Assembly (NCBI GenBank): GCA_017609225.1
Contig: JAFCEK010000001.1
Coordinates: 1 to 49,982 of the forward strand
Reading direction: 5' to 3'
Source: Candidatus Aenigmatarchaeota archaeon
Lineage (GTDB): Archaea > Aenigmatarchaeota > Aenigmatarchaeia > QMZP01
DNA: 49,982 bases
How positions within the stretch are numbered: position 1 is the first letter of the stretch; every line of letters starts with the position of its first letter. The position numbers and the translations under genes were made by a program. Under the pieces are notes generated by a model. It did no database searches. It saw nothing but the letters and a program-made list of their open reading frames with translations, and was not told the DNA's origin. Shown piece by piece: positions 12,324 through 24,922 of the stretch.

Positions 12324-12370
12324 TTCTTTGAATATATTATAACAAAAACAATTATTATTTAGTGGGATGT

Positions 12371-12847
12371 ATGAATGTGGGAGCTGTGTTTGGCATAATA
12401 TTTGCCGCAATATTCATAGGATTTATCCTGGCATTTGGTACAGGAGCAATAACAGACATATTCTGTGTTGGCAATGTTGCCCAGACAAACAATGCAGTAA
12501 AGCAGCTTGAGATAGCTGTTGAAAACCTTTATGTAAGGGGATCCGAGGGCTCAAGCGATGAATATACACTAAACATACCTGACAATGCAAGGGTATGCTT
12601 TGTGAACAGCACAGATGCAAGCCCGAATGTCCTGGGCGGCTGGATGCCAGACCCTGATACAGCGCATATAGTGAAAAGAAAGATAGAAACACAAAACCTC
12701 AATGTATGGGTTTACTACAACTGCGGAAGCCAGGAGCCGGGTTACAGGATTGAGTATCTCTCTGTGCCCAGCAGCTTTTGCGCCAGTCCAGGAACATCGC
12801 TCTATCTGGAGAACAAGGGACTTTCGGTTGAGATATCAAAAATGTAA
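12371..12847 (+). CDS. N-terminally anchored secreted protein (operon member)
   Basis: MNVGAVFGIIFAAIFIGFILAF hydrophobic N-terminus. Tightly spaced in the co-directional operon. Confidence 0.6.
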   Translation: MNVGAVFGIIFAAIFIGFILAFGTGAITDIFCVGNVAQTNNAVKQLEIAVENLYVRGSEGSSDEYTLNIPDNARVCFVNSTDASPNVLGGWMPDPDTAHIVKRKIETQNLNVWVYYNCGSQEPGYRIEYLSVPSSFCASPGTSLYLENKGLSVEISKM

Positions 12848-12887
12848 TTCATCAGCGCATGATTCAGAGTTCACATAACTGATATGC

Positions 12888-14015
12888 ATGATAACATTAT
12901 TCCAGCTGTTCAAGATGATTTTTGGCATAATTGTGGCAGCCTTTATTCTCTATGCGCTTCTGAATTATTCAGGCAGCTATTCAGTATTTCAGGAAAGCGG
13001 CATAAAGGCAAAGATATTGAACAATTTCAGGGAAACAGCGCAGGATGTTTATTATTCCGGAAATGCCATAACCTATACAGACTTTTCTGCATATGATTTT
13101 TCTGGCACAAGATATGAACCGCTCAGAAACCCCCCTCTAATAGTGTCCGAAGCAGGGGAAATGGATATATGGTTTCCTCTTTTCTTTGTTATGGGAGAGA
13201 ATGTTTACATACACAGGGGCAGCCTTGATTACAAATTCTGGAAATTTTATTTTGTTGAGGCACTACCTGATATGAATATAATCTTTAATCCTGTTGACAA
13301 CACGCCTGATGCATGGGAAATAATGCAGGGCATAGTGGAGCTTATGCCTGATACAGCAGGAACAGAAAGGAAAATATATTTCGGACTTTGTGACGGGGAT
13401 TTTTATGAAACAAATGCATGCGGAGGCAAGCCATGCAGCAGAAATGACTTCCTTAATGCGCAGTCCACATTCTCTGCAACCCGGTTTGATAAATGCACAG
13501 CATCCCTGCCGCAGAACTCAAGGCTTGTTGTGATATCATCAGGCTGCACGCAGGGCTATGCAAACAGCAGCATATGCATAATACCATCCGGTTCAGGTGT
13601 TGGAAATTTCTATATCTCGGGTTCTCCTGAAAAATTTATATACAGGGATTCCCTTGACCTGCTGTCTGCAGTCCTTGGCGGGACAGAGCAGGATGCATTT
13701 GGCAAAACGCAGGGGGAAAAATTTTATGAATACAAAAACAGGATATTTGGGGAAAGATTAAAGATAGCATCAGACATAACCGCCAAAAGGTCGCTGCTTG
13801 TTACAGGAAGGCTTAACCCGGATACGGAAAGCACTGACTATTACTGCAGGTCAGTTTATATTTCCCTTGAGGGCATAACAAACCAGATAAAATCACTTGT
13901 TTCCAACAGGAATTACTACACGAATACAGCAGACCAGACAAACCTTAAGAATCTCCTTGAGCAGGCAAAGCTCAATTACCAGGAGCTTGTAAACAGGGGA
14001 TGTGAGTATCAATGA
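12888..14015 (+). CDS. N-terminally anchored secreted protein, 375 aa
   Basis: MITLFQLFKMIFGIIVAAFILYALL N-terminal helix. Its stop overlaps the next start (ATGA at 14012). Confidence 0.65.
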   Translation: MITLFQLFKMIFGIIVAAFILYALLNYSGSYSVFQESGIKAKILNNFRETAQDVYYSGNAITYTDFSAYDFSGTRYEPLRNPPLIVSEAGEMDIWFPLFFVMGENVYIHRGSLDYKFWKFYFVEALPDMNIIFNPVDNTPDAWEIMQGIVELMPDTAGTERKIYFGLCDGDFYETNACGGKPCSRNDFLNAQSTFSATRFDKCTASLPQNSRLVVISSGCTQGYANSSICIIPSGSGVGNFYISGSPEKFIYRDSLDLLSAVLGGTEQDAFGKTQGEKFYEYKNRIFGERLKIASDITAKRSLLVTGRLNPDTESTDYYCRSVYISLEGITNQIKSLVSNRNYYTNTADQTNLKNLLEQAKLNYQELVNRGCEYQ

Positions 14016-14536
14016 AAACAAAAAACATAAAGGGGCAGTATTCTGTTCTTGAATATGTGTTTCTTTCCCTGTTCATTATAGCAATCATAATAGGGCTCAT
14101 GTTTTTCCTTACCATATGGAGCAGCATACAGTTTGGAGCTGAAAGCATGAAAACAGAATGGGACAGGGCTTTATGGCTCGGCCAGTATGTTCAGAACATT
14201 CCCCTGCTGGTTAAGGAAACAGGCATGTTTGATGATGGCAAGCTGACAGCCCTTGCAAGCATGGGCCCATCAAAGGCATGCGAATATCTTGAAAGCCTTG
14301 CAGGCCCTGACTTCTTTATGGAACTCAGGATTCTGGATGGAAATGAAACCCAGATAAACTGCACATGGCAGAACTATCCTGACTGCAATTACTGGGAGTT
14401 CTGCAAAAATACAGGCAAAAAAAAGAAAAAATTCTACACGCTTCCTGTAAATGTTTACAGAAGGATAGGGTTCAAGCTTCAGGAAACAACCACAGGCAGA
14501 ACAGACATTGGAATATTAAAGGCAGGTGTGTACTGA
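14012..14536 (+). CDS. Pilin-like protein with a class III signal peptide
   Basis: MKTKNIKG/QYSVLEYVFLSLFIIAIIIGLMFFL: K-G-Q site followed by a hydrophobic helix. Confidence 0.7.
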   Translation: MKTKNIKGQYSVLEYVFLSLFIIAIIIGLMFFLTIWSSIQFGAESMKTEWDRALWLGQYVQNIPLLVKETGMFDDGKLTALASMGPSKACEYLESLAGPDFFMELRILDGNETQINCTWQNYPDCNYWEFCKNTGKKKKKFYTLPVNVYRRIGFKLQETTTGRTDIGILKAGVY

Positions 14537-14559
14537 GGGTAGCAGCGGAAGGAGATTGC

Positions 14560-15093
14560 ATGAATGCAGAAAAAAACCATGAAAAGGCGCAGGCAAGCAT
14601 AATAATGATAGTCCTTGTTCTCATAATATTTGCAGGGCTTGCCCTGTTTCTCCTCTCCTTTGCAAAAACAATGAGCCAGGAGGATTACATGAGCACCTAT
14701 GTTAACAGTCTGCTGCTTTCAATAATGAGAACAGACACAGGATACCTGGATTCAGACTGCAGGCTTGTGTCAGATGCAATATCATGCAGCTTTTTCTCAA
14801 CAGGGCTTGTGTGCAGGGATTCGGAAATAACATGCGACAGCCTGGCATACAGAAAGGTGGAGGAATACATAAACAGAACCATAAAAAAAGGCTTCAGGTA
14901 TTTCTTTTCTGTAACACCGGAAGGATTTGTTGCAAGGTCAAGCTCGGGGGAGCCAATAAAATTTGAAATCGGGGATTCAAAGCTGAAAAGCGAGAAAACA
15001 GAAAAATGGAGCGCAAACCAGAGAATAATGAAGGCAACAGCAACAGGCCAGTATTCCCTGAAGGTTCAGCTTGTTATAGCTGTGAAAAAATAA
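14560..15093 (+). CDS. Pilin-like protein with a class III signal peptide
   Basis: MNAEKNHEKA/QASIIMIVLVLIIFAGLALFLL. Confidence 0.65.
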   Translation: MNAEKNHEKAQASIIMIVLVLIIFAGLALFLLSFAKTMSQEDYMSTYVNSLLLSIMRTDTGYLDSDCRLVSDAISCSFFSTGLVCRDSEITCDSLAYRKVEEYINRTIKKGFRYFFSVTPEGFVARSSSGEPIKFEIGDSKLKSEKTEKWSANQRIMKATATGQYSLKVQLVIAVKK

Positions 15094-15169: not shown

Positions 15170-17020
15170 ATGAATATTAGGAAGGGGCAGGCAGAGCTCA
15201 TAATCCTGGTTGGCATAATAGTTGTTTTTGTGGCTGTTGTTTTCTATACATACCAGTCAAGCCTGTTCACGGCACCTGTAACACCTGAAACAGAAAACAT
15301 AAGGAACACTATAGAGAACTTCATAAGGGAGGGAGCAAGAGACACGCTCAGAACAATGTATGATTACGGCGGATACCTGGAGGCGCAGCCCGGCTCCGTG
15401 ATTTTTCTGGGAAAGGAAATTCCATACTGGCAGAAAAGCGGACAGGTATCATACCCTGATGTGAGGCAAAATCTTGTACAGGGCGTAACAAGCTATCTGA
15501 ATGAAAACAAGGATTCTCTTGAGGCAATGCTTGCAGGAAAGAATGTAACCCTTGGAACCGCCTATGTAAGCGCGGTTATCCTGGGAAGCCAGATAACCCT
15601 TACAGTAAACATGCCAACCCAGTACATGGAACAGAGCCTGCAGCAGCCGTATGTTGTTACAGTTCCATCCAAACTCGGCGAGATATATGAGTTTTCAAAG
15701 GGATTTGCAGCGCAGGAGGCCACAAGCAGATATTTTGAATATTTCACTGTGTCCAGCATGATGATAAGCCCGTTTGAAGGCGGTGTGCAGGCAGTGCCTG
15801 TTGTGGTTTTGCTTACGCAATGCGGGGAAATGGTTTTCAAAACATGGTTTGATATAAAACCCGGAATGGAGGATGTAATAAAAACAACGCTTGCTCATAC
15901 CTATATGCCAGGCAAGTCACCGCTTGGCGTAATGCACAAAACAAGCTTCCCGAAATATATGATACCTGAAATAGGAAACAAGGCATATGAGGATTTGAAT
16001 ATAAGCTTCCATCTGCCTGATGATTTTGAATTAACGCAGAGCAATTTCCAGTTTACCCCAAATCCGATAAGTGCATTTACAGAGCCTGTGCCAATGACAA
16101 GCCAGTGCTATTCAAACCCTGTTTATGTCAAGTATGCAGTAAACTACCCTGTTATTGTAAGGGTAAAGGACAGCCTTACAGGAGACAGCTTCCATTTCGC
16201 GATTGATGTTTCCATTTATGACAATGCGCCAAGGCCATGGACATCTGATACAACAGGATACACACCAGAGGTGCAGCAGGAGATATGCGAGAACCAGCTC
16301 TGCACAGCAAGCATAACAGTCACAGACAGCAGCGGTGCACCTGTTTCTGGAGCAGAAGCAAGCTTTATGGGATGCCCAATCGGAAGAACAGACAGTAATG
16401 GTATAGTGACAGCTTCCATACCATGCGGTATAGGGCCTCTTGTAATATACAAAAACAGATACCAGACATTCGAGCAGATGATGTCCTCAGACCATCTTGA
16501 AGGCACCACGATATCTATTGAAAAGATACCTGTGGTAAATCTGAATTTTTATGAAGTTAATATAGTCAACAACACGCTGACAGACGAGTACTGGATAAGG
16601 GTTGGAGATGTGAATATGATAGATGATATAACAGATGAAACAATTCATATAATATTTTATGACCTTTCAACAGGCGAAACCTATGAGAGAATATACGAGA
16701 ACAGGCAGGCAACAATAAGGCATATACCCCCGGGTTCATATGCTGTTACAGCCATGCTTTCAAGCCCTGATATGGCAATCATGTATGGCGCTGTGCTAAC
16801 CACACTTACAATAACAGAAGATATGGACGGAGGCACACTTTATGTTTATCTTCCTTATAATTTTGAATTCAAGGACATAACAGACAGCGTTGAAAAAACA
16901 GTTGCATCCAGAACATTAACAGCAGTGCTGGAGGAATGCGGCATAGGACCAATATCAAGCGAACAGTACGATATAAATAATTTACCATGTAAAAAAGCAT
17001 ATAGCGAGATTGTAATCTAA
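15170..17020 (+). CDS. Large (616 aa) pilin-like protein with a carboxypeptidase-regulatory-like beta-sandwich
   Basis: MNIRKG/QAELIILVGIIVVFVAVVF. Internal ITVTDSSGAPVSGAEASFMGCPIGRTDSNGIVTASIPCG resembles the CarboxypepD_reg fold. Confidence 0.7.
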   Translation: MNIRKGQAELIILVGIIVVFVAVVFYTYQSSLFTAPVTPETENIRNTIENFIREGARDTLRTMYDYGGYLEAQPGSVIFLGKEIPYWQKSGQVSYPDVRQNLVQGVTSYLNENKDSLEAMLAGKNVTLGTAYVSAVILGSQITLTVNMPTQYMEQSLQQPYVVTVPSKLGEIYEFSKGFAAQEATSRYFEYFTVSSMMISPFEGGVQAVPVVVLLTQCGEMVFKTWFDIKPGMEDVIKTTLAHTYMPGKSPLGVMHKTSFPKYMIPEIGNKAYEDLNISFHLPDDFELTQSNFQFTPNPISAFTEPVPMTSQCYSNPVYVKYAVNYPVIVRVKDSLTGDSFHFAIDVSIYDNAPRPWTSDTTGYTPEVQQEICENQLCTASITVTDSSGAPVSGAEASFMGCPIGRTDSNGIVTASIPCGIGPLVIYKNRYQTFEQMMSSDHLEGTTISIEKIPVVNLNFYEVNIVNNTLTDEYWIRVGDVNMIDDITDETIHIIFYDLSTGETYERIYENRQATIRHIPPGSYAVTAMLSSPDMAIMYGAVLTTLTITEDMDGGTLYVYLPYNFEFKDITDSVEKTVASRTLTAVLEECGIGPISSEQYDINNLPCKKAYSEIVI

Positions 17021-17031
17021 AAGATGAGAAT

Positions 17032-20000
17032 ATGGATATAAAGCACCTTGCACTGGAAATCTTTGCAGTAGCGGTATCCTATTTATTGTTAATGTTACCT
17101 GTAACATCAGCCACAAGCGTTAATATATTTTTCAATGGCATACAGCAGGACACAACAGATATATCTCCCGGAAATCTTGTAAGCAAAGAGATAAACGTGT
17201 ATCATGATGCTGATGATATAACATGGACAAACATAAAGGTTCTTGTAACCCTGAGCAGCGCAAGCCTTTCCCACAGCATAAAGAAAATATATTTATACAA
17301 ATGCAAAACACTGTCGCCATCCGCATGCATCCAGGGAACGCCCCAGGTATTTGACAGCTGGATTGATACAGAGCTTTCATGGAATGATATATCCCAGAGT
17401 GAGGGCGTGGGGGTTTATCCCCAAACAGCAAACCTGATGTTCCTTGTTAAGCTTGAAGACTTCAATGGCAAGGCAAGCTGGGTTGGCTTCTGGGATACCA
17501 TAAGAAGAATAGACTACAACATATTCAATCATTATAGTTATCCCCTCAATGAAATTGAATTTCATGCAAAATCCCTGGATATGATAGAACCCATAAAGAC
17601 ATACATAGAAAATTACCAGATGATTCCCTTCAACTGGGCAGAGAAGGTTGTATTCAGGATGGCAAACATACTCTATGGTGTTGGTGCAAACGAGCAGGAA
17701 ATTGAACAGACACCACCGTTTTTTGATGGGGCCCAGACAAGTACAAACCAGGTAACAAGCATAGGAAAGGACTATTACTTTGTGCTTTCAAACATCACAA
17801 GCGGCATAACCAATCCTGTAACCATGCGTTTGAATCCATCATTCACATGCGGCAATGGCCAATGCGAAACAGACTTGGGAGAAACCACATCAACATGCTG
17901 CTATGACTGCGGCTGCGCAGCAGATTTCTATTGCGATATGAGTGATGAACAGAATCCGGAAACAGGCGCCTGCAGGTCGCTAACAGAAATCACAGTAGAT
18001 GTAACAAGCACATCAATGGCTGACATAACTGACTGCAGCCAGAACCAGCAGTTAACTATAACAGCGCAGATAAATAATGCACCTTCCAACCTTCCCGCAA
18101 CGCTTACAGGATATATAAAACTGAATGAAACCCAGTATAATGTTCCATGCCAGTCAAGCATCCCAGGAATATATGAATGCACTGTAAATCTGCAGCCAGA
18201 GGTAAGATGCGGTGACGGAAGCTATGTTCTTGGTCCAAATGAGATTAATTTCACCATACCATTTAATGACGGACCTGATATGATAACTGAAACAATAGGA
18301 ACAGAATTTTCTGACATAACAGTAAACTACAACTGCGAATGTGCAGGCGGATATTATTGTGATTCCGGTCTGAGAATGTGCAAGCCGGAGGGGCAGATAG
18401 CGCTTGTTATAATAAATGTTACCTCATATATGGATAATTACAATCCTGCAGGGGATAACATAGGAATATATGCAACAATAAACAATCCCCCATCTGACAT
18501 GAGTATTACAGGAAGTTCATATGTTCTGGGAAACATAACCTTTGACGGAAGTTCTTCGCCTGGTTCCTCAGGAAGCGTGACATGTGATGAAAGCAACAAC
18601 ATATATTACTGCAGCATACCGCTGTTTATACAAAACTATGACCACTCAAGGCAGTATATAGTGAACGGAAACAGCCTCTCATTTACAATAAGCTTTAGTG
18701 ATGGCGGCAACTCCATAACAAAAACGCTTACAACAGGGTTTTCCGATATTATAGTGCCTTCGTACAGATGCGGTGATACTACATGCAATGCCGAAGAGAA
18801 TTCAGATAACTGCTGCCTGGACTGCGGATGTCCCAATCCCGATGATTACTGTGACAGGGTTTACGGCTGCGTGAACGAAAACAACATAACCATGGTTATC
18901 GATACAATAACACCTGAAAACCTGACTGACTGCAAGATACCCCATGTGCTTAACATAAAAGCAAGAATACTCAACGCGCCAAGCGACCTTGTTCTCAATT
19001 ATTATTATTATCTGCAGAATGATGAAATAAAGGGCTGGAACCTGTTATGCATGGAATCACCGCCAGGATCAAATATGGGAATTTTTGAATGCCAGCTTGC
19101 TGTTCCCCCCATTGATGATTGTTCCCTGCCTTATTACACGCTTGGCAATAATAAGCTGAGGTTTTCAGTTTCATTTCCAAACGGCCTCACGCAGGTTCTG
19201 ACAAAAACGCTTGAGGCTGAGTTTCAGGATATAAACATAGTTCCAACATACCATTGCGGTGACAATATATGCGAATATGACCTAAACGAGAGCGGCTCTG
19301 TGTGCTGTATTGACTGCATATGCGGCTCAGACCCGGATTTTGGATCTGAATATTACTGCGACTATGACCCCCAGCTGAATCCAAACGGCACATGCCTCCC
19401 AAAAAACAACATAACACTTGTTATAGACAAGCCGATGGCAGTTGTGCATTTCACAAGCTGCGAGAAGGCAAACACAGTAAACATAAAGGCGCATGTTGAA
19501 AACCAGCCTTCAGGCATGATTGTTGAAAATATTTTCGGCATTTTCAACGGGGAAACAGCTGAATATATCTCATGCACACCTGAAATGGGAATAATTACAA
19601 CACCAAACTATACAGGACCTGTTGAATGGAACTCATACAACTGCAGTCTTATTGTACCTGCAGAGCAGCAATGTTCACAGGGCCAGACATACACCTATAG
19701 CAATAACTCACTCTCATTCTTCATAAGCTATACAAACGGTTTGGGAAAAAGGGAAACACAGATACTTACACAGCCATATCCTGATGTGACAATAACCCAG
19801 AATATAAGAACACTTTATGACATAATGCAGGATGCAATCAGCAGGATGAAAGGAAAGCTTCAGGAAACCATAACACTTATGGAGGACCTCATCAAAATGT
19901 GGGAGGACTGTTTGGACATGCTGATTGCATTAACCATAGTAATGGTTATAGGAACAATTGTGGCAGGCGTTATTGGAGCCAAGACCGGAGGGACAGAAGG

Positions 20001-21426
20001 ATTCTCTGAAACAGTAAAGGCATCAAGTGCAGCCAGCACTGCAGTCATAACAACACTCATGGGCATATGCGAAATAATGGGTAAGGTAATACAGCTCAGA
20101 ATAAATATGAAGGAAACAGAGATTGACTTTATAAGAATGGAAACATGCATCGAGGTTTACCAGCACCAGATGGACACGGGAATGTGTGACAGGAATGCTG
20201 AGGGCTGCTTTAATGCAATAGCAGGCTGCATAGAGTTCGGGGAAATTAATAGTTTCATAAACAGCGCACAGAGCATAGGCAGGGATATAAACTCCCAGGT
20301 ACAGCGGATTGGAAACGCATGGAGAAATGTGGGAGAAACAGTTGAAGGCCTTTCATTCGGAGCCCAGGGAGAAGGTGCAATAAGCTTCACATGCTCTCCT
20401 GGAGGCAGCTACTGTTGCGGCTATGTACCAAGAACAACAACAGGCGCAGGGCAGAACCAGTACCAGCTTCAGACAGTCAGCCTGACTATGGCCAGTCTGA
20501 AAAACTGTGAGAGGCCAAGCATAAAGATATACTCAAAGAAGGACTGGCTGGCAAGCTCCGATGTATGCAAATCAGCAAGCGGCAGGGCAGATGATGAGGC
20601 AGAAACAGCAGCAAACCAGATATGCATTGAAGCTGGTACAGGGTGCAATGTTGACAGGAAGACCATAAGCAGGCATGACAGGGTTTTTGAATGCAAGTAT
20701 CTGCTAAAGGAAGGCGACAACGGATACGATGAAAATGTAAAGATGCAGTGCGAGGCAAAATCAGCATATGCGAATCAGGCAGGAAAAGAAAAAGCCAATA
20801 AAATATGTGAAAGCGAGGGCGGTTCAGGCTGCAAGGCAAAGGCAACCTTCTGGGGTGAGAATGAATTTAAATGTGTATCCTCAGAAACAGGATTCAAGGA
20901 AATAACATCTTCTTACAGGGGAACCACAAAGGAGCTGTTCGGACCGCAGATGTTTGGCCAGTCAGACCAGGATTCGGGAAATGATGAATATGCCTTTGTT
21001 CTGGCATGTGATGGCGTGGACACAGACACATCCCAAACAGTGAAGTACTGCCTGGGAACACCGCAGGCAGGATGCGGAACAGGCTCTCCATGCGCTGCTG
21101 TCCGCCCGGAATGGGAAGACATGGCTCCAAAATCACCTGCAGGCACAATAACACCAACAGCAACACCTGTTGATACCCCAACAACATTCAGCGTCCAAAC
21201 AGACGCATCAGTTGTTTCTTTTGTATGGCTTATAAACGGCAGAGAATTGCGTAGAGGCAGAACATATGATGATGATAATTATGGCTACAGGGTATTGGAT
21301 ATAACCAGCGATGGAAGATTGATAATTGAATTCACAAAACCAAACAGATACCCGCTTGAATCGCGCATAACAGATGACAGCGGAAACATTGGCTACATAA
21401 CAGAATGGATAGATGTTTCACCCTGA
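17032..21426 (+). CDS. Giant (1464 aa) modular Cys-rich surface protein with an internal hydrophobic segment
   Basis: Sec signal (LLLMLPVTSA). Four tandem modules of roughly 150 aa, three of which start CG-x-x-x-CE...CC-x-DC-x-C while the second starts with the variant CECAGGYYC. TM-like LIALTIVMVIGTIVAGVIGA at 19921-19980. Cys-rich C-terminal region and a PKD-like end. Confidence 0.85.
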   Translation: MDIKHLALEIFAVAVSYLLLMLPVTSATSVNIFFNGIQQDTTDISPGNLVSKEINVYHDADDITWTNIKVLVTLSSASLSHSIKKIYLYKCKTLSPSACIQGTPQVFDSWIDTELSWNDISQSEGVGVYPQTANLMFLVKLEDFNGKASWVGFWDTIRRIDYNIFNHYSYPLNEIEFHAKSLDMIEPIKTYIENYQMIPFNWAEKVVFRMANILYGVGANEQEIEQTPPFFDGAQTSTNQVTSIGKDYYFVLSNITSGITNPVTMRLNPSFTCGNGQCETDLGETTSTCCYDCGCAADFYCDMSDEQNPETGACRSLTEITVDVTSTSMADITDCSQNQQLTITAQINNAPSNLPATLTGYIKLNETQYNVPCQSSIPGIYECTVNLQPEVRCGDGSYVLGPNEINFTIPFNDGPDMITETIGTEFSDITVNYNCECAGGYYCDSGLRMCKPEGQIALVIINVTSYMDNYNPAGDNIGIYATINNPPSDMSITGSSYVLGNITFDGSSSPGSSGSVTCDESNNIYYCSIPLFIQNYDHSRQYIVNGNSLSFTISFSDGGNSITKTLTTGFSDIIVPSYRCGDTTCNAEENSDNCCLDCGCPNPDDYCDRVYGCVNENNITMVIDTITPENLTDCKIPHVLNIKARILNAPSDLVLNYYYYLQNDEIKGWNLLCMESPPGSNMGIFECQLAVPPIDDCSLPYYTLGNNKLRFSVSFPNGLTQVLTKTLEAEFQDINIVPTYHCGDNICEYDLNESGSVCCIDCICGSDPDFGSEYYCDYDPQLNPNGTCLPKNNITLVIDKPMAVVHFTSCEKANTVNIKAHVENQPSGMIVENIFGIFNGETAEYISCTPEMGIITTPNYTGPVEWNSYNCSLIVPAEQQCSQGQTYTYSNNSLSFFISYTNGLGKRETQILTQPYPDVTITQNIRTLYDIMQDAISRMKGKLQETITLMEDLIKMWEDCLDMLIALTIVMVIGTIVAGVIGAKTGGTEGFSETVKASSAASTAVITTLMGICEIMGKVIQLRINMKETEIDFIRMETCIEVYQHQMDTGMCDRNAEGCFNAIAGCIEFGEINSFINSAQSIGRDINSQVQRIGNAWRNVGETVEGLSFGAQGEGAISFTCSPGGSYCCGYVPRTTTGAGQNQYQLQTVSLTMASLKNCERPSIKIYSKKDWLASSDVCKSASGRADDEAETAANQICIEAGTGCNVDRKTISRHDRVFECKYLLKEGDNGYDENVKMQCEAKSAYANQAGKEKANKICESEGGSGCKAKATFWGENEFKCVSSETGFKEITSSYRGTTKELFGPQMFGQSDQDSGNDEYAFVLACDGVDTDTSQTVKYCLGTPQAGCGTGSPCAAVRPEWEDMAPKSPAGTITPTATPVDTPTTFSVQTDASVVSFVWLINGRELRRGRTYDDDNYGYRVLDITSDGRLIIEFTKPNRYPLESRITDDSGNIGYITEWIDVSP

Positions 21427-21455
21427 TTTTTATTTCCTTCTGCCTAATTATTTAT

Positions 21456-23006
21456 ATGAAATTAGCACCTGCACTTTTCCTTGCTTTTGCAATAGTTATG
21501 CTGTTTTCCCCTGTGTCAGCCCTGAGGATTAATGATAATCTTTATTTCACAATAAGCAATGACAGCGTAAAATGTGTTGATATTTTTCTGCCTGATGATG
21601 CAGGGGTTTTTGACCTGGGGCTTTTCGAGTATGTTATAACAAGCACAAGCCCATGGGGCGACCTGACAGAGCAGATAGTGAGAACAGATGAGAACAATAC
21701 AGTACTGATACCAATATGCTTTTTTGGCTCAGAATGGCCAGAGTGCCAGTGCTCAAACCATACAATCACCATATCAGTGCCTTCGCTTGGGATAAGCAAA
21801 ACCTTCAGAGGCGGGGTTTGCGTATCCAGCATAGAGGATGTTGATATTGTGGATGATGCCGGGGGGCAGACACCGGACCAGGTTCTTAACACCAACATGG
21901 ACATGTTCAGTATAGGATTTCAGATGCCAGTTCAGCATGCAGCTCCGGGGGAAACCGTTACATACAGGCTGTTTGCCGAGTCGCAGGCGGATATAGTGCT
22001 TGACATAATATTTGAAAATTCAGAATTATCAGTAATACCTGCCCAGGCGCAGGCAGAGCTGGACAGCTCAAACCCCTTTGAACTCTTTGACTTTAATGTT
22101 ACAGCCCCAAGCCAGGCAGGAAGCTATACGTTTACAATAACTGCTGCAGCCAGGGACTGCACAGGAAATTTCTGCACAAAAAAAGCCAGAGGAACGCTTA
22201 ATGTTGGAGGCACACCCTCCGCAGGATTTTCTGTAAATCTGTTCCCAAAAAACCTTAATGTCAGGGAGCTTACATCTGTTAGATATGAATTTTCAATCCA
22301 GAACTTTGGTGAACCGGAAAACTTTACCATAACAGGAAACATACCACAGAATCTTGCCACAGATTTCCGGGAAACAACCCTGTTTGTAGGGTCCAAAAAA
22401 ATAAAAAGCATAAAATTTTCTGTTACGCCTGCTGCATCCTCAAGCCTTTATGAGATAACAATATCCGCCACTGGCTCCGGAAACAACACAAAGCATGCCA
22501 CTGCATACCTTTCCACAAATGAAATGCTGACAGACCCGCAGAGGTATGCAAACAGCATAACAGGAAGCACAGACAACAGAAGCATTATAAACAATGTGAA
22601 CAACGCAATGAACAGCTGGCAGAATTCATACAGCTCAAACACATATGGAGCGGATACAGGGCAGTACAGCAGCCTGCAGGAAACCCTTGGCATTGCACAA
22701 TCCTCACTTAAGTCATCCCAGGAGCAGCCAGCGGGAATATGCACCCCAGGCAAAAAGCAGTGTTATGGTATGCTCCTTCAGGAATGCAGGCAGGACGGCT
22801 CAGGCTGGGAAACCCTTGAAACATGCGATTATGGATGCGATAATACACTGCATGCATGCATACAGGACAGTGGAGGGCAGCCATCTGCAGGTTTTGACTA
22901 CATATGGATTATTGTTATAGCTGTCATTGCTGCAGCAGCCATTGGCTTTATTTTTTACAGAAAAAAATCAGGCGGCCTGGAGGCCGAGCTTGAACAGGAG
23001 TTTTGA
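21456..23006 (+). CDS. Surface protein (about 516 aa) with Sec signal, C-terminal Cys module, TM anchor and acidic tail
   Basis: MKLAPALFLAFAIVMLFSPVSA. The C-terminal CTPGKKQCYGMLLQECRQDGSGWETLETCDYGC module is shared with the 2150-aa protein. TM YIWIIVIAVIAAAAIGFIF. The ATG at 21456 avoids overlap with the upstream stop at 21426. Confidence 0.8.
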   Translation: MKLAPALFLAFAIVMLFSPVSALRINDNLYFTISNDSVKCVDIFLPDDAGVFDLGLFEYVITSTSPWGDLTEQIVRTDENNTVLIPICFFGSEWPECQCSNHTITISVPSLGISKTFRGGVCVSSIEDVDIVDDAGGQTPDQVLNTNMDMFSIGFQMPVQHAAPGETVTYRLFAESQADIVLDIIFENSELSVIPAQAQAELDSSNPFELFDFNVTAPSQAGSYTFTITAAARDCTGNFCTKKARGTLNVGGTPSAGFSVNLFPKNLNVRELTSVRYEFSIQNFGEPENFTITGNIPQNLATDFRETTLFVGSKKIKSIKFSVTPAASSSLYEITISATGSGNNTKHATAYLSTNEMLTDPQRYANSITGSTDNRSIINNVNNAMNSWQNSYSSNTYGADTGQYSSLQETLGIAQSSLKSSQEQPAGICTPGKKQCYGMLLQECRQDGSGWETLETCDYGCDNTLHACIQDSGGQPSAGFDYIWIIVIAVIAAAAIGFIFYRKKSGGLEAELEQEF

Positions 23007-23146: not shown

Positions 23147-24922
23147 TCAGAATTCTTCTTCGCTTCCAGCATCATCCTCAAACTCTTCTTCCCCGGCAGA
23201 TTCCTTTCCACTGCCAAGACCATGTTTTTTGAGAAATTTGAATGCTACAAAAACAACCACCAGCACCACAACAACTATTATAACAAGAGTGAAATCAAAA
23301 CCCCCGCCTGCACTAACAGGCTGCACTGCAGCCCCAAGAGCAATAACATTCTGAAGAAGACTGAATTTTGCGCTGGCAGAGTCATAGTATTCTTTTGCCC
23401 GGGTATAATCACTGTCTTTATATGAATCTGCAGAGCTTATATCGCTGTCTATGTCATCCAATATATAATAAAACAGGTTTTCCTGATCCAAACTAAGATT
23501 CATTCTGAAGCTGGAAAATTCCTGCTGCAGTGAATCTACATCGCCTGAAATATCCTGGAAAAATTCAGCGCTTACAACTATATTTGCTGTTCCAGCACCT
23601 GTATCTATCTCAATTGTGCCGCTGTATCTTCCGGGGCTGGGAGTTGAAAGCGAAACATTCACTATTCCTGAGCTGCCTGGTGCTATGGAATTTGGCAAAA
23701 CCACAGAAGCTATTGAGCCTATTGTTCCAGTGGCTGAATAACTAATGTTATCCATTGTGCTGTTTCCAAGGTTTGAGAGCGTGAATGTTCTGTAAATTGT
23801 TTCTCCAACTGTGCTGGTTTCAATCCATGTTGAAGGTGAAATGCTCAGGTCACCAGACACGCAGGCAGGGCAGTCCCCACCAGCGCTCCCATCACACTCA
23901 TTCATAACGCTTATGGTTATGTTTACAGGTATCCTGCCTATCACAGTTCCGTTTGAAACAATATCTGCCTGGGTTCCTATCTCCATGCTGTTTTGTATGT
24001 TGTTCAGGTTTACAGTAAAGTAAATAGTCCCTTTTCCTTCTATTGTGCTGTTGCCCAGGGTTATGCTGAGATATGGTGAAAGCGCAGATATTATGCTGGT
24101 TGACAGGTCTGCTATGCTCTCATTGCCAAGATTTCTTATCCTGAATCCTCCCTGCGAAAAGCTCTGTCCTTTTGTAACCATAACATCCAGGGAAACAGCA
24201 TCTATCTCCAGGTCAGCAGGCACATATGCCCCACCGGTTTCTTCACCTTTAATTACAAATCTTACCAGGTCACCGCCAAAGCTTGTTCCTCCGCTGTTTT
24301 GAGCGGCGAATGCCATGTAGTACTCGCCGGGCCCCAGGCTTATATTGCCTATGTAACCTCTTATGGGAGTATAATAAACCAGGCTGCCTGACTTTTCAGG
24401 CAGAAGGTCTATGCTGCTGTTGTATGTTTTGTAGCTTACACCTGTAACCCCTGTATCAGACCATACTGTTATATCAACCATGCCATTATTATTTGTTGTT
24501 ATGTTTATGGTAAGCTCTATATCACCTGCATTTACAGTGTCCTGAAATCCGCTTTCCTGACCATAGGCATCGCTAATGTTTACAGAGAATGTATAAGGTA
24601 TAAATGTTTCAGAGCCCTGATATTTTGATGCATAGAAGGGCGTGGGACCGCATGTGCTCTTTTCATCTGTATTTGAAAAATAGCAAACCCACCTGTTTCC
24701 GGACCTTGGAAACGAGCCAAAACCATCTGCTATGCCAAAAACCTGCCATCTTACCCTTATGGACTTGGAATATTCCCCCGGATCTGCTACTGCAATAAAG
24801 CTTGCGTTTGCGGAGAATTTTTCAGGGATAAATGTTACTATGGGGTCGGGAAGCGCCTGCACATTAACCAAAACCAGTGCAAAAACCAGAAACCCGGCTG
24901 CCAGCCCCGCACATATTTTCAT
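23147..24922 (-). CDS. Surface protein (591 aa) with Sec signal, beta-rich repeats, C-terminal TM and acidic tail
   Basis: MKICAGLAAGFLVFALVLVNVQA. C-terminal FDFTLVIIVVVVLVVVFVAFKF followed by KKHG...EEEFEDDAGSEEEF. Confidence 0.8.
   Translation of the reverse strand: MKICAGLAAGFLVFALVLVNVQALPDPIVTFIPEKFSANASFIAVADPGEYSKSIRVRWQVFGIADGFGSFPRSGNRWVCYFSNTDEKSTCGPTPFYASKYQGSETFIPYTFSVNISDAYGQESGFQDTVNAGDIELTINITTNNNGMVDITVWSDTGVTGVSYKTYNSSIDLLPEKSGSLVYYTPIRGYIGNISLGPGEYYMAFAAQNSGGTSFGGDLVRFVIKGEETGGAYVPADLEIDAVSLDVMVTKGQSFSQGGFRIRNLGNESIADLSTSIISALSPYLSITLGNSTIEGKGTIYFTVNLNNIQNSMEIGTQADIVSNGTVIGRIPVNITISVMNECDGSAGGDCPACVSGDLSISPSTWIETSTVGETIYRTFTLSNLGNSTMDNISYSATGTIGSIASVVLPNSIAPGSSGIVNVSLSTPSPGRYSGTIEIDTGAGTANIVVSAEFFQDISGDVDSLQQEFSSFRMNLSLDQENLFYYILDDIDSDISSADSYKDSDYTRAKEYYDSASAKFSLLQNVIALGAAVQPVSAGGGFDFTLVIIVVVVLVVVFVAFKFLKKHGLGSGKESAGEEEFEDDAGSEEEF

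Follow-up and report, generated by a model that had tools for sequence, protein, structure and literature searches.

In a stretch of 49,982 nucleotides (nt) from Candidatus Aenigmatarchaeota archaeon (assembly GCA_017609225.1, contig JAFCEK010000001.1, positions 1 to 49,982; hereafter the window), we analysed an open reading frame (ORF) at 17032..21426, here called P0001. Its product is a large protein on the surface of a tiny DPANN archaeon; it belongs to an undescribed family and has an unusual layout, a new mechanism being unproven: a Sec-type signal is followed by an all-beta N-domain, four tandem modules, a helical region, a Cys-rich tail and a PKD-like sandwich. We favour, with a probability of roughly 55%, a reading in which the helical region forms a disulfide-clamped, two-pass hairpin anchor in mid-chain, with a marginally hydrophobic return helix and both halves of the protein outside the cell. 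The window is archaeal chromosome, with genes for PCNA, AspRS, SerRS, CTP synthase, FttA and an ERCC4 nuclease surrounding the locus. Nothing was seen in the window that marks the locus as a mobile element, the same housekeeping neighbours being present in locus L001, and no tRNA genes were found in it. The host genome measures 0.88 Mb and is 78% complete.

17032..21426, + strand: P0001, whole gene, 1464 amino acids (aa) (ORF list, translation, homologue searches)

A word-indexed search returned 21 homologues, the few with source names being labelled Aenigmatarchaeota or Nanoarchaeota, i.e. DPANN, and an exhaustive phmmer search of 1.84 billion representatives with residues 925-1464 returned 56 proteins of 1300-2250 aa. 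Within this query only residues 925-1165, the helical domain, are conserved, about 900-1100 residues into the homologues, while the sequence after ~1165 is lineage-specific and not conserved beyond close relatives. The family was found in all 23 sampled genomes of the window's own taxonomic family (23/23), mostly as a long and a short form, and in the other 150 genomes of a 200-genome phylum sample neither the P0001 family nor the N-domain was found. Pfam and NCBIfam scans of P0001 and eight neighbours gave no meaningful family, and P0001 has no family match in the PDB. We rejected an assembly or gene-fusion artefact, as dozens of genomes retain the ORF uninterrupted.

The original prediction had pointed to a puzzle of topology: behind a Sec signal, one membrane helix in mid-protein would leave a second half of extracellular appearance in the cytoplasm. 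The sequence features that it quoted are all present in the ORF where it placed them, and the puzzle is real, in that the long clade has exactly one clearly hydrophobic mid-protein helix with extracellular-type sequence after it. Hydropathy gives three peaks in P0001, the signal core at residues 6-24, residues 963-981 (Kyte-Doolittle 2.74, the strongest) and residues 1004-1022 (1.53, weak). The strongest window corresponds to the predicted membrane segment LIALTIVMVIGTIVAGVIGA (residues 964-983, nt 19921-19980). The second hydrophobic stretch that had been proposed, AASTAVITTLMGICEIMG, is indeed present at residues 1000-1017 but is weakly hydrophobic. By hydropathy, the long clade has no C-terminal hydrophobic segment and no other anchor, and P0001 has nothing hydrophobic after residue 1022. 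The elements of the helical region are as follows.

19795..19908, + strand: stalk part of helix 1, residues 922-959, with the motif TQxIRSxYDI... (AlphaFold, alignment, column statistics)
19909..19911, + strand: invariant C960, directly before the hydrophobic helix (invariant in 28/28, symmetric spacing)
19912..19974, + strand: first hydrophobic helix, residues 961-981, with a small-xxx-small pattern (hydropathy, fixed length, charged fraction)
19975..20001, + strand: hairpin tip loop, residues 982-990, GAKTGGTEG (homologue loop statistics, AlphaFold)
20002..20067, + strand: return helix, residues 991-1012 (AlphaFold helix 988-1048, homologue spacing, charge statistics)
20068..20070, + strand: invariant C1013 (invariant in 28/28)
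20071..20349, + strand: rest of the helical domain, residues 1014-1106 (AlphaFold, alignment)

Searching for homologues that keep or lack the hydrophobic segment, we found the layout, including the placing of the hydrophobic helix in mid-protein, in more than 50 diverged homologues, so it is not due to chance. AlphaFold modelling of residues 740-1464 predicts long antiparallel helices at 928-984 and 988-1048 with a predicted local distance difference test (pLDDT) score of 74-86, falling to 59-68 at the turn. Six cysteines are invariant in the 28 long-clade sequences (C960, C1013, C1039, C1052, C1059 and C1066), and the first two bracket the hairpin at fixed distances: the segment from C960 to G982 is 21 residues long in 26 of the 28 homologues and that from F991 to C1013 is 23 residues long in 27. 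Charged residues make up only 7% and 10% of these two segments, respectively, compared to 21-33% in the flanking helices (33% in the stalk part 922-959, where Q923 and I931 are invariant), and the positions beside the cysteines (955, 958, 962 and 1014) are charged in 75-86% of sequences (1014: 75%). Judged from the alignment, a disulfide-clamped bilayer boundary would look like this, with both helices switching their charge at the level of the Cys pair. The first helix (rough Hessa sum -2.8) varies in sequence while its hydrophobicity is kept, as expected of, and thus suggesting, a lipid-facing surface. The return helix is rich in Ala, Ser, Thr and Gly and has a single hydrophobic face (991, 995, 1001, 1005, 1009 and 1012), and in most members of the short clade, the genome's own copy included, the aligned segment is a proper hydrophobic helix (P0019 and P0020 being exceptions). 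Residues 1014-1106 comprise the end of helix 2, a helix at 1056-1066 and a 38-residue helix at 1069-1106 that in the model matches the length of the stalk part above the Cys pair; they carry the motif M..C....QH..D.G.C......CF.....C, and D1048 is invariant. No significant fold match for the helical part was found by Foldseek in the PDB (CorA chains appear at probability 0.16-0.18 and a template modelling (TM) score of ~0.08-0.14), and comparing the helical-domain profile with PDB sequences, and members with Pfam, gave coiled-coil noise only.

The tip loop ranges from 5 to 35 residues among homologues, and to ~100 in three members. In P0035 (945-1090) and P0038 (955-1100) the insert at the tip consists of 40-45 uncharged, Gly/Ala-rich, glycine-zipper-like residues followed by ~75 polar ones; the hairpin tip thus tolerates very large insertions.

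Among the three solutions offered by the original prediction, i.e. a helical hairpin, a re-entrant segment or a fusogenic segment, the hairpin is the one we favour, because of the AlphaFold hairpin, the invariant cysteines, the fixed charge-poor segments and the hydrophobic return helix of the short clade. The fusogenic segment found no positive support: P0001 lacks a C-terminal anchor and does not significantly resemble fusion proteins in sequence or fold. Two adjacent antiparallel helices of bilayer length (AlphaFold, fixed segments) and, indirectly, flanks that lie on the same outer side (domain types, Cys parity and sequon avoidance, see below) come close to the ordinary two-pass arrangement that had been named as the outcome that would refute the prediction; the hairpin departs from it in that the return helix fails hydropathy and the loop does not follow the positive-inside rule. 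Several observations weigh against our interpretation. The return helix would not be called transmembrane from its hydropathy peak, its Hessa sum is ~+4.4 kcal/mol with no scan window under +3 (values summed by hand and therefore rough), and Ser, Thr, Asn and Gln abound in it in many homologues. The tip loop has a mean K+R of 1.3 and a net charge of -0.18 (the flank before the first helix: -1.9) and, being rich in Gly and aromatic residues, is more like an interfacial loop. The first helix has just 13-16 consecutive hydrophobic residues in P0009, P0010, P0033 and P0050. In the short-clade proteins P0019 and P0020 a single hydrophobic helix is followed by a highly charged helix unable to cross a membrane, and the topology of the conserved motif after the helix may therefore vary across the family. 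Finally, the AlphaFold input was a monomer with 21 sequences only. Because return-helix hydropathy, the short first helix, the uncharged loop and P0019/P0020 do not fit neatly, we do not go beyond the probability given above.

The same observations could be explained if the hairpin did not span the protein's own membrane in its mature state, and were instead buried in an oligomeric bundle or among pilin helices, or kept as a latent pore-forming or fusogenic tip for a host membrane, with partners holding the protein in place. A return helix that is amphipathic to polar, a hydrophobic stretch of 13-16 residues in several homologues and a Gly/aromatic-rich, net uncharged tip loop of very variable length, as in interfacial or fusion loops, would fit such a state. 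So would P0019 and P0020, where a hydrophobic and a charged helix are paired with Cys at symmetric distances (22 + 20 residues versus ~44), and so would the dependence of DPANN archaea on cell-cell contact with their hosts (PMC11329633). Nevertheless, behind a Sec signal the helix 961-981 (Hessa sum as above) is expected to enter the cell's own membrane during translocation. Moreover, clear hydrophobic helices number two or three in most short paralogues, with one at the very C-terminus, as in ordinary integral anchoring; matches to fusion proteins, alpha-pore-forming toxins and translocators are insignificant (HA2, F, YaxA and SseC at E 0.1-3), and the second anchor of the kind that fusogens need is missing. 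We regard a non-spanning hairpin as possible, if on the unlikely side, and prefer the two-pass anchor.

Which side of the membrane the second half lies on bears directly on the two-pass reading. After the helical domain, the following features were found.

20350..21153, + strand: lineage-specific Cys-rich region, residues 1107-1374, no sequons (sequence, pLDDT <50, homologue search)
20563-20694, + strand: 44-aa four-Cys unit, copy 1, residues 1178-1221 (sequence)
20746-20874, + strand: 44-aa four-Cys unit, copy 2, residues 1239-1281 (sequence)
21154..21186, + strand: Thr/Pro linker PTATPVDTPTT, residues 1375-1385 (sequence)
21187..21423, + strand: C-terminal beta-sandwich, PKD-like by fold only, residues ~1386-1464 (AlphaFold strands with pLDDT 60-73, Foldseek)

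This half had been described as Cys-rich with repeated CK..A.G. motifs, a Thr/Pro linker and a PKD-like end. There are indeed 22 cysteines after residue 984, although the motifs turn out to be two copies of the ~44-aa four-Cys unit, and the linker was found as described. The PKD-like end is suggested by fold: in Foldseek, the last 70 residues (model region pLDDT 60-73) match 4l9d (PrtV PKD1; TM score 0.53-0.55, probability 1.0, E 0.07, root mean square deviation 3.3) and 4aqo (TM score 0.55), at E 0.07-0.14. Pfam PKD (PF00801 / PF18911) gave no match to the last 70-80 residues, nor did any Pfam family match the protein at E <= 0.1, so that 'PKD-like' refers here to the fold. In homologues, the extensions beyond the helical domain carry PKD, CARDB, Big_5, Big_7 and LNR domains, which are extracellular domain types, with PKD matches in P0009 and P0014. 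Of 36 homologues, 29 have an even number of cysteines in the extension (p = 1.6e-4), and in P0001 the number is even in every region (2, 42, 6 and 16).

The distribution of N-x-S/T glycosylation sequons provides a third view. In 36 homologues, we counted 4 sequons in the helical domain versus 47 expected (observed-to-expected ratio 0.08) and 16 in the extension versus 130 expected (0.12). Control motifs (the reverse motif, N-x-A/G, Q-x-S/T and D-x-S/T) occur at 0.91-1.12 of expectation in the extension and at 0.65-1.03 in the helical domain, within an overall control range of 0.65-1.28. A composition effect was rejected as the origin of the desert, since the reverse and related motifs are at expectation, and so was a family-wide trait, since the short clade shows no desert (ratios 1.21, 1.59 and 1.07). 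As a baseline for the genome, which encodes STT3/AglB, the ratio is 0.92 in 277 ORFs without a hydrophobic segment and 1.9 in 220 ORFs with one. Avoidance below the cytoplasmic baseline implies, on these statistics, selection against sequons, and such a sequence would therefore have to meet the oligosaccharyltransferase, the sole setting where this selection makes sense. Binning over the long clade shows that sequons are confined to the four modules and that the N-domain (ratio 0.0-0.18) is as bare as everything after module 4; P0001 itself has none in residues 28-253, 13 between N254 and N891, which is the last, and none in 892-1464. A region after module 4 selected to stay free of glycans would also fit the non-spanning hairpin described above.

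Sequons are frequent elsewhere in this genome: ORFs with a hydrophobic segment hold 1470 versus 775 expected (genome G000; e.g. C57:1-13741, C39:3109-7081 and C19:4751-7811), one 4580-aa ORF holds 242 versus 76, and a 2150-aa protein of the window holds 55 versus 23. By such counts, glycosylation of this organism's surface appears to be very heavy.

Extracellular domain types, even Cys parity and sequon avoidance are three independent lines, and all say, as far as sequence can, that the C-terminal half is outside the cell, in agreement with the extracellular look ascribed to it in the original prediction; the PKD assignment is suggested by the fold only. They also bear on the simplest alternative, a plain single-pass type I protein in which only 961-981 crosses the membrane and everything after it is cytoplasmic, where the cysteines might bind metal. 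Such a protein would agree with the one segment of transmembrane grade that hydropathy finds in the long clade, with P0019 and P0020, which resemble type I proteins with a 65-residue charged tail containing an aligned E...MC motif, and with the Cys-rich tail of the short-clade protein P0015. It would, however, place PKD, CARDB, Big and LNR domains in the cytoplasm, give no reason for the even Cys count of the extensions and put five invariant cysteines inside, with C960 left over outside as the 45th. Furthermore, sequon ratios of 0.08-0.12 are far below the cytoplasmic 0.92 and are shared with the secreted N-domain, and the sharp charge change at C1013 mirrors that at C960. We therefore consider a single-pass protein improbable.

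The P0015 tail (residues 1095-1263) spans 170 residues with 14 Cys and lies behind a third hydrophobic helix; such a helix is often found at the very C-terminus in the short clade. Simple counting of transmembrane helices would make this tail cytoplasmic, and either the count is wrong or the family has Cys-rich tails on both sides of the membrane.

An outside C-terminal half could also arise if the chain were cut near the hairpin, giving an N-terminal product with type I anchoring and, as a second protein, a C-terminal part that takes its own path to the surface. The region after 1165 does look lineage-specific and modular, as if appended, and the loop is flexible and Gly-rich. On the other hand, the loop contains no conserved cleavage motif, no separate signal precedes the C-terminal part, six invariant cysteines and the predicted hairpin join both sides, and the single ORF is intact in all homologues with no internal stops, which makes processing very improbable indeed.

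Upstream of the hairpin, the protein is organised as follows.

17032..17112, + strand: Sec-type signal peptide, residues 1-27, core 6-24, predicted cleavage after T-S-A (hydropathy and alignment; cleavage inferred)
17113..17844, + strand: N-domain, residues 28-271, all-beta, probably two beta-sandwiches (AlphaFold, Foldseek, invariant columns, sequon bins)
17845..18333, + strand: module 1, residues 272-434, knot CGNGQCETDLGETTSTCCYDCGC and Ig-like sandwich, ending FSDITV (module alignment, AlphaFold)
18334..18765, + strand: module 2, residues 435-578, truncated knot CECAGGYYCDSGLRMC and Ig-like sandwich, ending FSDIIV (module alignment)
18766..19251, + strand: module 3, residues 579-740, knot CGDTTCNAEENSDNCCLDCGC and Ig-like sandwich, ending FQDINIV (module alignment)
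19252..19794, + strand: module 4, residues 741-921, knot CGDNICEYDLNESGSVCCIDCIC and Ig-like sandwich, ending YPDVTIT (module alignment, AlphaFold, sequon positions)

At the predicted cleavage site T-S-A/T, A27 is invariant and P23 nearly so in the family alignment of 21 homologues. A class III signal on P0001 itself was rejected, as it lacks a [KR]-G site and has a conserved site of the A-x-A type, suited to signal peptidase I. The N-domain has an invariant Cys pair (C91/C99) and invariant W117, W150 and W202. AlphaFold models residues 27-440 as a chain of beta-sandwiches with a pLDDT of 91.6 (model m7e91bb0b29e0), according to which the ectodomain is rod-shaped, with about six sandwiches. 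Foldseek matched the N-terminal model only to generic proteins such as tandem Ig/FN3 adhesins and complement MG domains, and the ectodomain shows no lectin or enzyme signature. The four tandem modules seen in the original prediction are true repeats, with a pairwise identity of 31-36% over ~145-185 aa, and their knots lie at residues 273-295, 435-450 (the truncated variant), 580-600 and 742-764. The Ig-like stretch proposed behind each knot is modelled as a beta-sandwich in module 1 (pLDDT ~90) and module 4 (pLDDT 80-95), while the common ending FSDI(T/I)V applies to modules 1 and 2 but not to modules 3 and 4.

The N-domain alone (window 17113-17960, residues ~6-310) recurs at the N-terminus of other giant proteins of 1500-2900 aa, which were found in three sister families of the same order in the phylum sample. 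Given this recurrence, it looks like a portable head domain.

P0001 is part of a larger operon, with the following genes beside it.

12362..15093, + strand: four small genes of 161, 375, 174 and 177 aa, all with a hydrophobic helix at the N-terminus (sequences, L001 synteny)
15170..17020, + strand: conserved partner gene, 616 aa, with the pilin-like N-terminus MNIRKG/QAELIILVGIIVVFVAVVFY (sequence, synteny)
21405..23006, + strand: downstream gene, 533 aa, with a signal, an Ig-like region, a C-terminal transmembrane helix and an acidic tail (ORF list, L001 synteny)

Only 11 nt separate the end of the partner gene from the start of P0001, and a gene of 614-728 aa lies directly upstream of every homologue examined, often overlapping or within ~11 nt. 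The 616-aa product has the features of a class III signal ([KR]-G, Q and a hydrophobic helix), although Pfam gave no class III signal match in it at E <= 0.1 and phmmer against the PDB found nothing. A prepilin peptidase (A24; Peptidase_A24 match over the cut-off) is encoded on contig C54 and T2SSE ATPases on C64 and C75. Among the small upstream genes, the two ORFs in 14012-15093 (174 and 177 aa) have class III-like N-termini (KNIKG/QYSVLEYVF and HEKA/QASIIMIVL), while ORFs 12362-12847 and 12888-14015 begin with hydrophobic helices that look uncleaved; none of the four matches a known pilin family in Pfam or NCBIfam. The 533-aa gene overlaps the end of P0001 by 22 nt (21405-21426), with a 518-aa gene at the same place in L001, where the operon of the long paralogue is syntenic, and the partner gene of relatives runs 4-28 nt into the large gene. 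From the sequence, this close spacing and overlap suggest that three envelope proteins are translationally coupled. The partners of P0001 and of the short paralogue share 31% identity (E 7e-74) and the same N-terminal motif, so the pair was duplicated as a unit. A pilin-like partner that is always adjacent and duplicated together with the large gene would also suit a hairpin held by its partners instead of by the bilayer.

The genome's own second gene pair (L007:7897-13382, contig C39) adjoins alanyl-tRNA synthetase and ribosomal protein genes, a context shared by locus L003 from another metagenome, and consists of a 728-aa pilin-like partner (KRG/QAELIIIIG) and a 1108-aa short paralogue ending in three hydrophobic segments. 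Downstream of P0001, the genes at 21405-23006 (+) and 23147-24922 (-) encode anchored surface proteins, each ending in a transmembrane helix, a basic stretch and an acidic tail (...EQEF or ...EEEF).

Returning to the two-pass hairpin, we propose the following sequence of events. The Sec signal would be cleaved, the N-domain and the four modules would be translocated, and the helix 961-981 would stop the transfer. The short Gly-rich loop would then turn the chain at the cytoplasmic face, and the small-residue-rich helix 991-1012 would pack on the first helix and recross the membrane with its help, by which the helical stalk, the Cys-rich region and the PKD-like domain would end up outside. C960 and C1013 would lie at the outer membrane boundary, probably as a disulfide clamping the hairpin, and the other four invariant cysteines may tie together a helical stalk of ~5 nm. 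The polar face of the return helix would probably be covered, either through self-association or by the pilin-like helix at the partner's N-terminus. Above the membrane, the four glycosylated modules would form a spacer, and the glycan-free N-domain tip and the glycan-free base with the C-terminal arm may serve as surfaces for protein-protein or ligand contact. These surfaces would be part of a complex of products of the pilin-like operon, most plausibly an adhesion or contact structure.

The pairing with the partner, the pilin-like operon and a glycosylated spacer with naked ends suggest, at the level of sequence, a role in a surface complex. Adhesion or contact is a natural guess for a host-attached organism, with a structural coat role as a possible alternative. 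The proteins by which DPANN archaea, which live attached to other archaea, make and use contact are largely unknown, and a family that is present in 23 of 23 sampled genomes of the window's own taxonomic family, with a constant pilin-like partner and no database annotation is a candidate for a core envelope or contact structure. One could go further and see in the disulfide-clamped hairpin and the glycan-free C-terminal arm the end that acts on membranes in a DPANN contact apparatus made of the products of the pilin-like operon, which we consider a long shot. Here an oligomer would turn the lipid-facing helix 961-981 outwards and line its inside with the Ser/Thr/Asn-lined return helix, which would give the membrane of the symbiont itself or of its host a pore or insertion device, and the naked N-domain would reach the host surface with the glycosylated Ig modules as spacers. 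The interest of the family would rise if the hairpin were a true membrane-active element towards the host. On a practical matter, the sequon pattern offers a functional map from sequence alone, with a glycosylated spacer between glycan-free ends that are probably the parts making specific contacts, and sequon ratios relative to a genome baseline could serve as a marker of topology or interfaces in other archaeal surface proteins.

Several known systems share features with P0001. PilY1-type pilus tip proteins and bindosome-type class III proteins likewise combine small pilin-like proteins with a large Sec-signal non-pilin, with the peptidase and T2SSE encoded elsewhere. The P0001 locus, however, lacks an ATPase or platform gene, PilY1 has no membrane hairpin and no sequence similarity was detected. 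Class I fusion proteins (HA2, paramyxovirus F) and fusexins (Fsx1/HAP2) resemble it in having a hydrophobic segment beside long helices and a large glycosylated ectodomain, but P0001 has no C-terminal anchor and no fusion peptide generated by cleavage, and fusexins are all-beta class II folds. With the helical-domain profile, the PDB entries of HA2 (E 0.12-0.9) and F (E 0.3-3.7) amount to coiled-coil noise. With the C-terminal model, Foldseek found no PDB entry below E 1e-3, low-TM tail-fibre or Ig noise in BFVD and no fusion protein among significant matches, and no HAP2 or fusexin is among the top 50 fold matches of either model (only alphavirus glycoproteins at probability 0.13-0.21). Alpha-pore-forming toxins and translocators (YaxA/XaxA, the ClyA family, SseC/IpaB) share a helical bundle with a hydrophobic helix-turn-helix end and an amphipathic return helix; these are secreted in soluble form without Ig-module ectodomains, whereas P0001 shows no sign of a soluble state, and the matches to YaxA (E 2.6, profile against PDB) and to SseC in Pfam (E 0.003 in 1 of 28 members) are insignificant.

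Hairpin anchors whose second helix is marginally hydrophobic, as in polytopic membrane proteins, and CorA, a structural analogue with a long stalk, are similar in their close antiparallel helices of ~21-23 residues, short loop, small-residue packing and continuous long stalk. The Foldseek matches to CorA are weak and we make no claim of homology, and P0001 differs in its large extracellular flanks, its invariant Cys pair and a loop that is not positive. In the Sulfolobales, S-layer stalk proteins of the SlaB type consist of a Sec signal, a row of beta-sandwiches, a long helical stalk and a single C-terminal transmembrane helix, with the gene of an envelope partner adjacent. P0001 falls outside this type, as no sequence similarity was found in Pfam, NCBIfam or the PDB, its neighbour is pilin-like with no SlaA-like canopy, and its chain turns back, with ~450-480 residues after the mid-chain membrane helix that would be outside in the model we favour; nonetheless, it shares the Sec signal, the row of beta-sandwiches, the helical stalk leading to a membrane helix and the envelope partner encoded next door. 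Prokaryotic surface proteins rarely have an anchor in mid-chain flanked by two large extracellular arms, and the combination of a Cys-bracketed mid-chain hairpin, two extracellular arms, an obligatory pilin-like partner and region-specific sequon avoidance is undescribed in the libraries searched; the parts themselves, i.e. Sec signal, Ig-like modules, helical stalk and membrane helix, are of known kinds.

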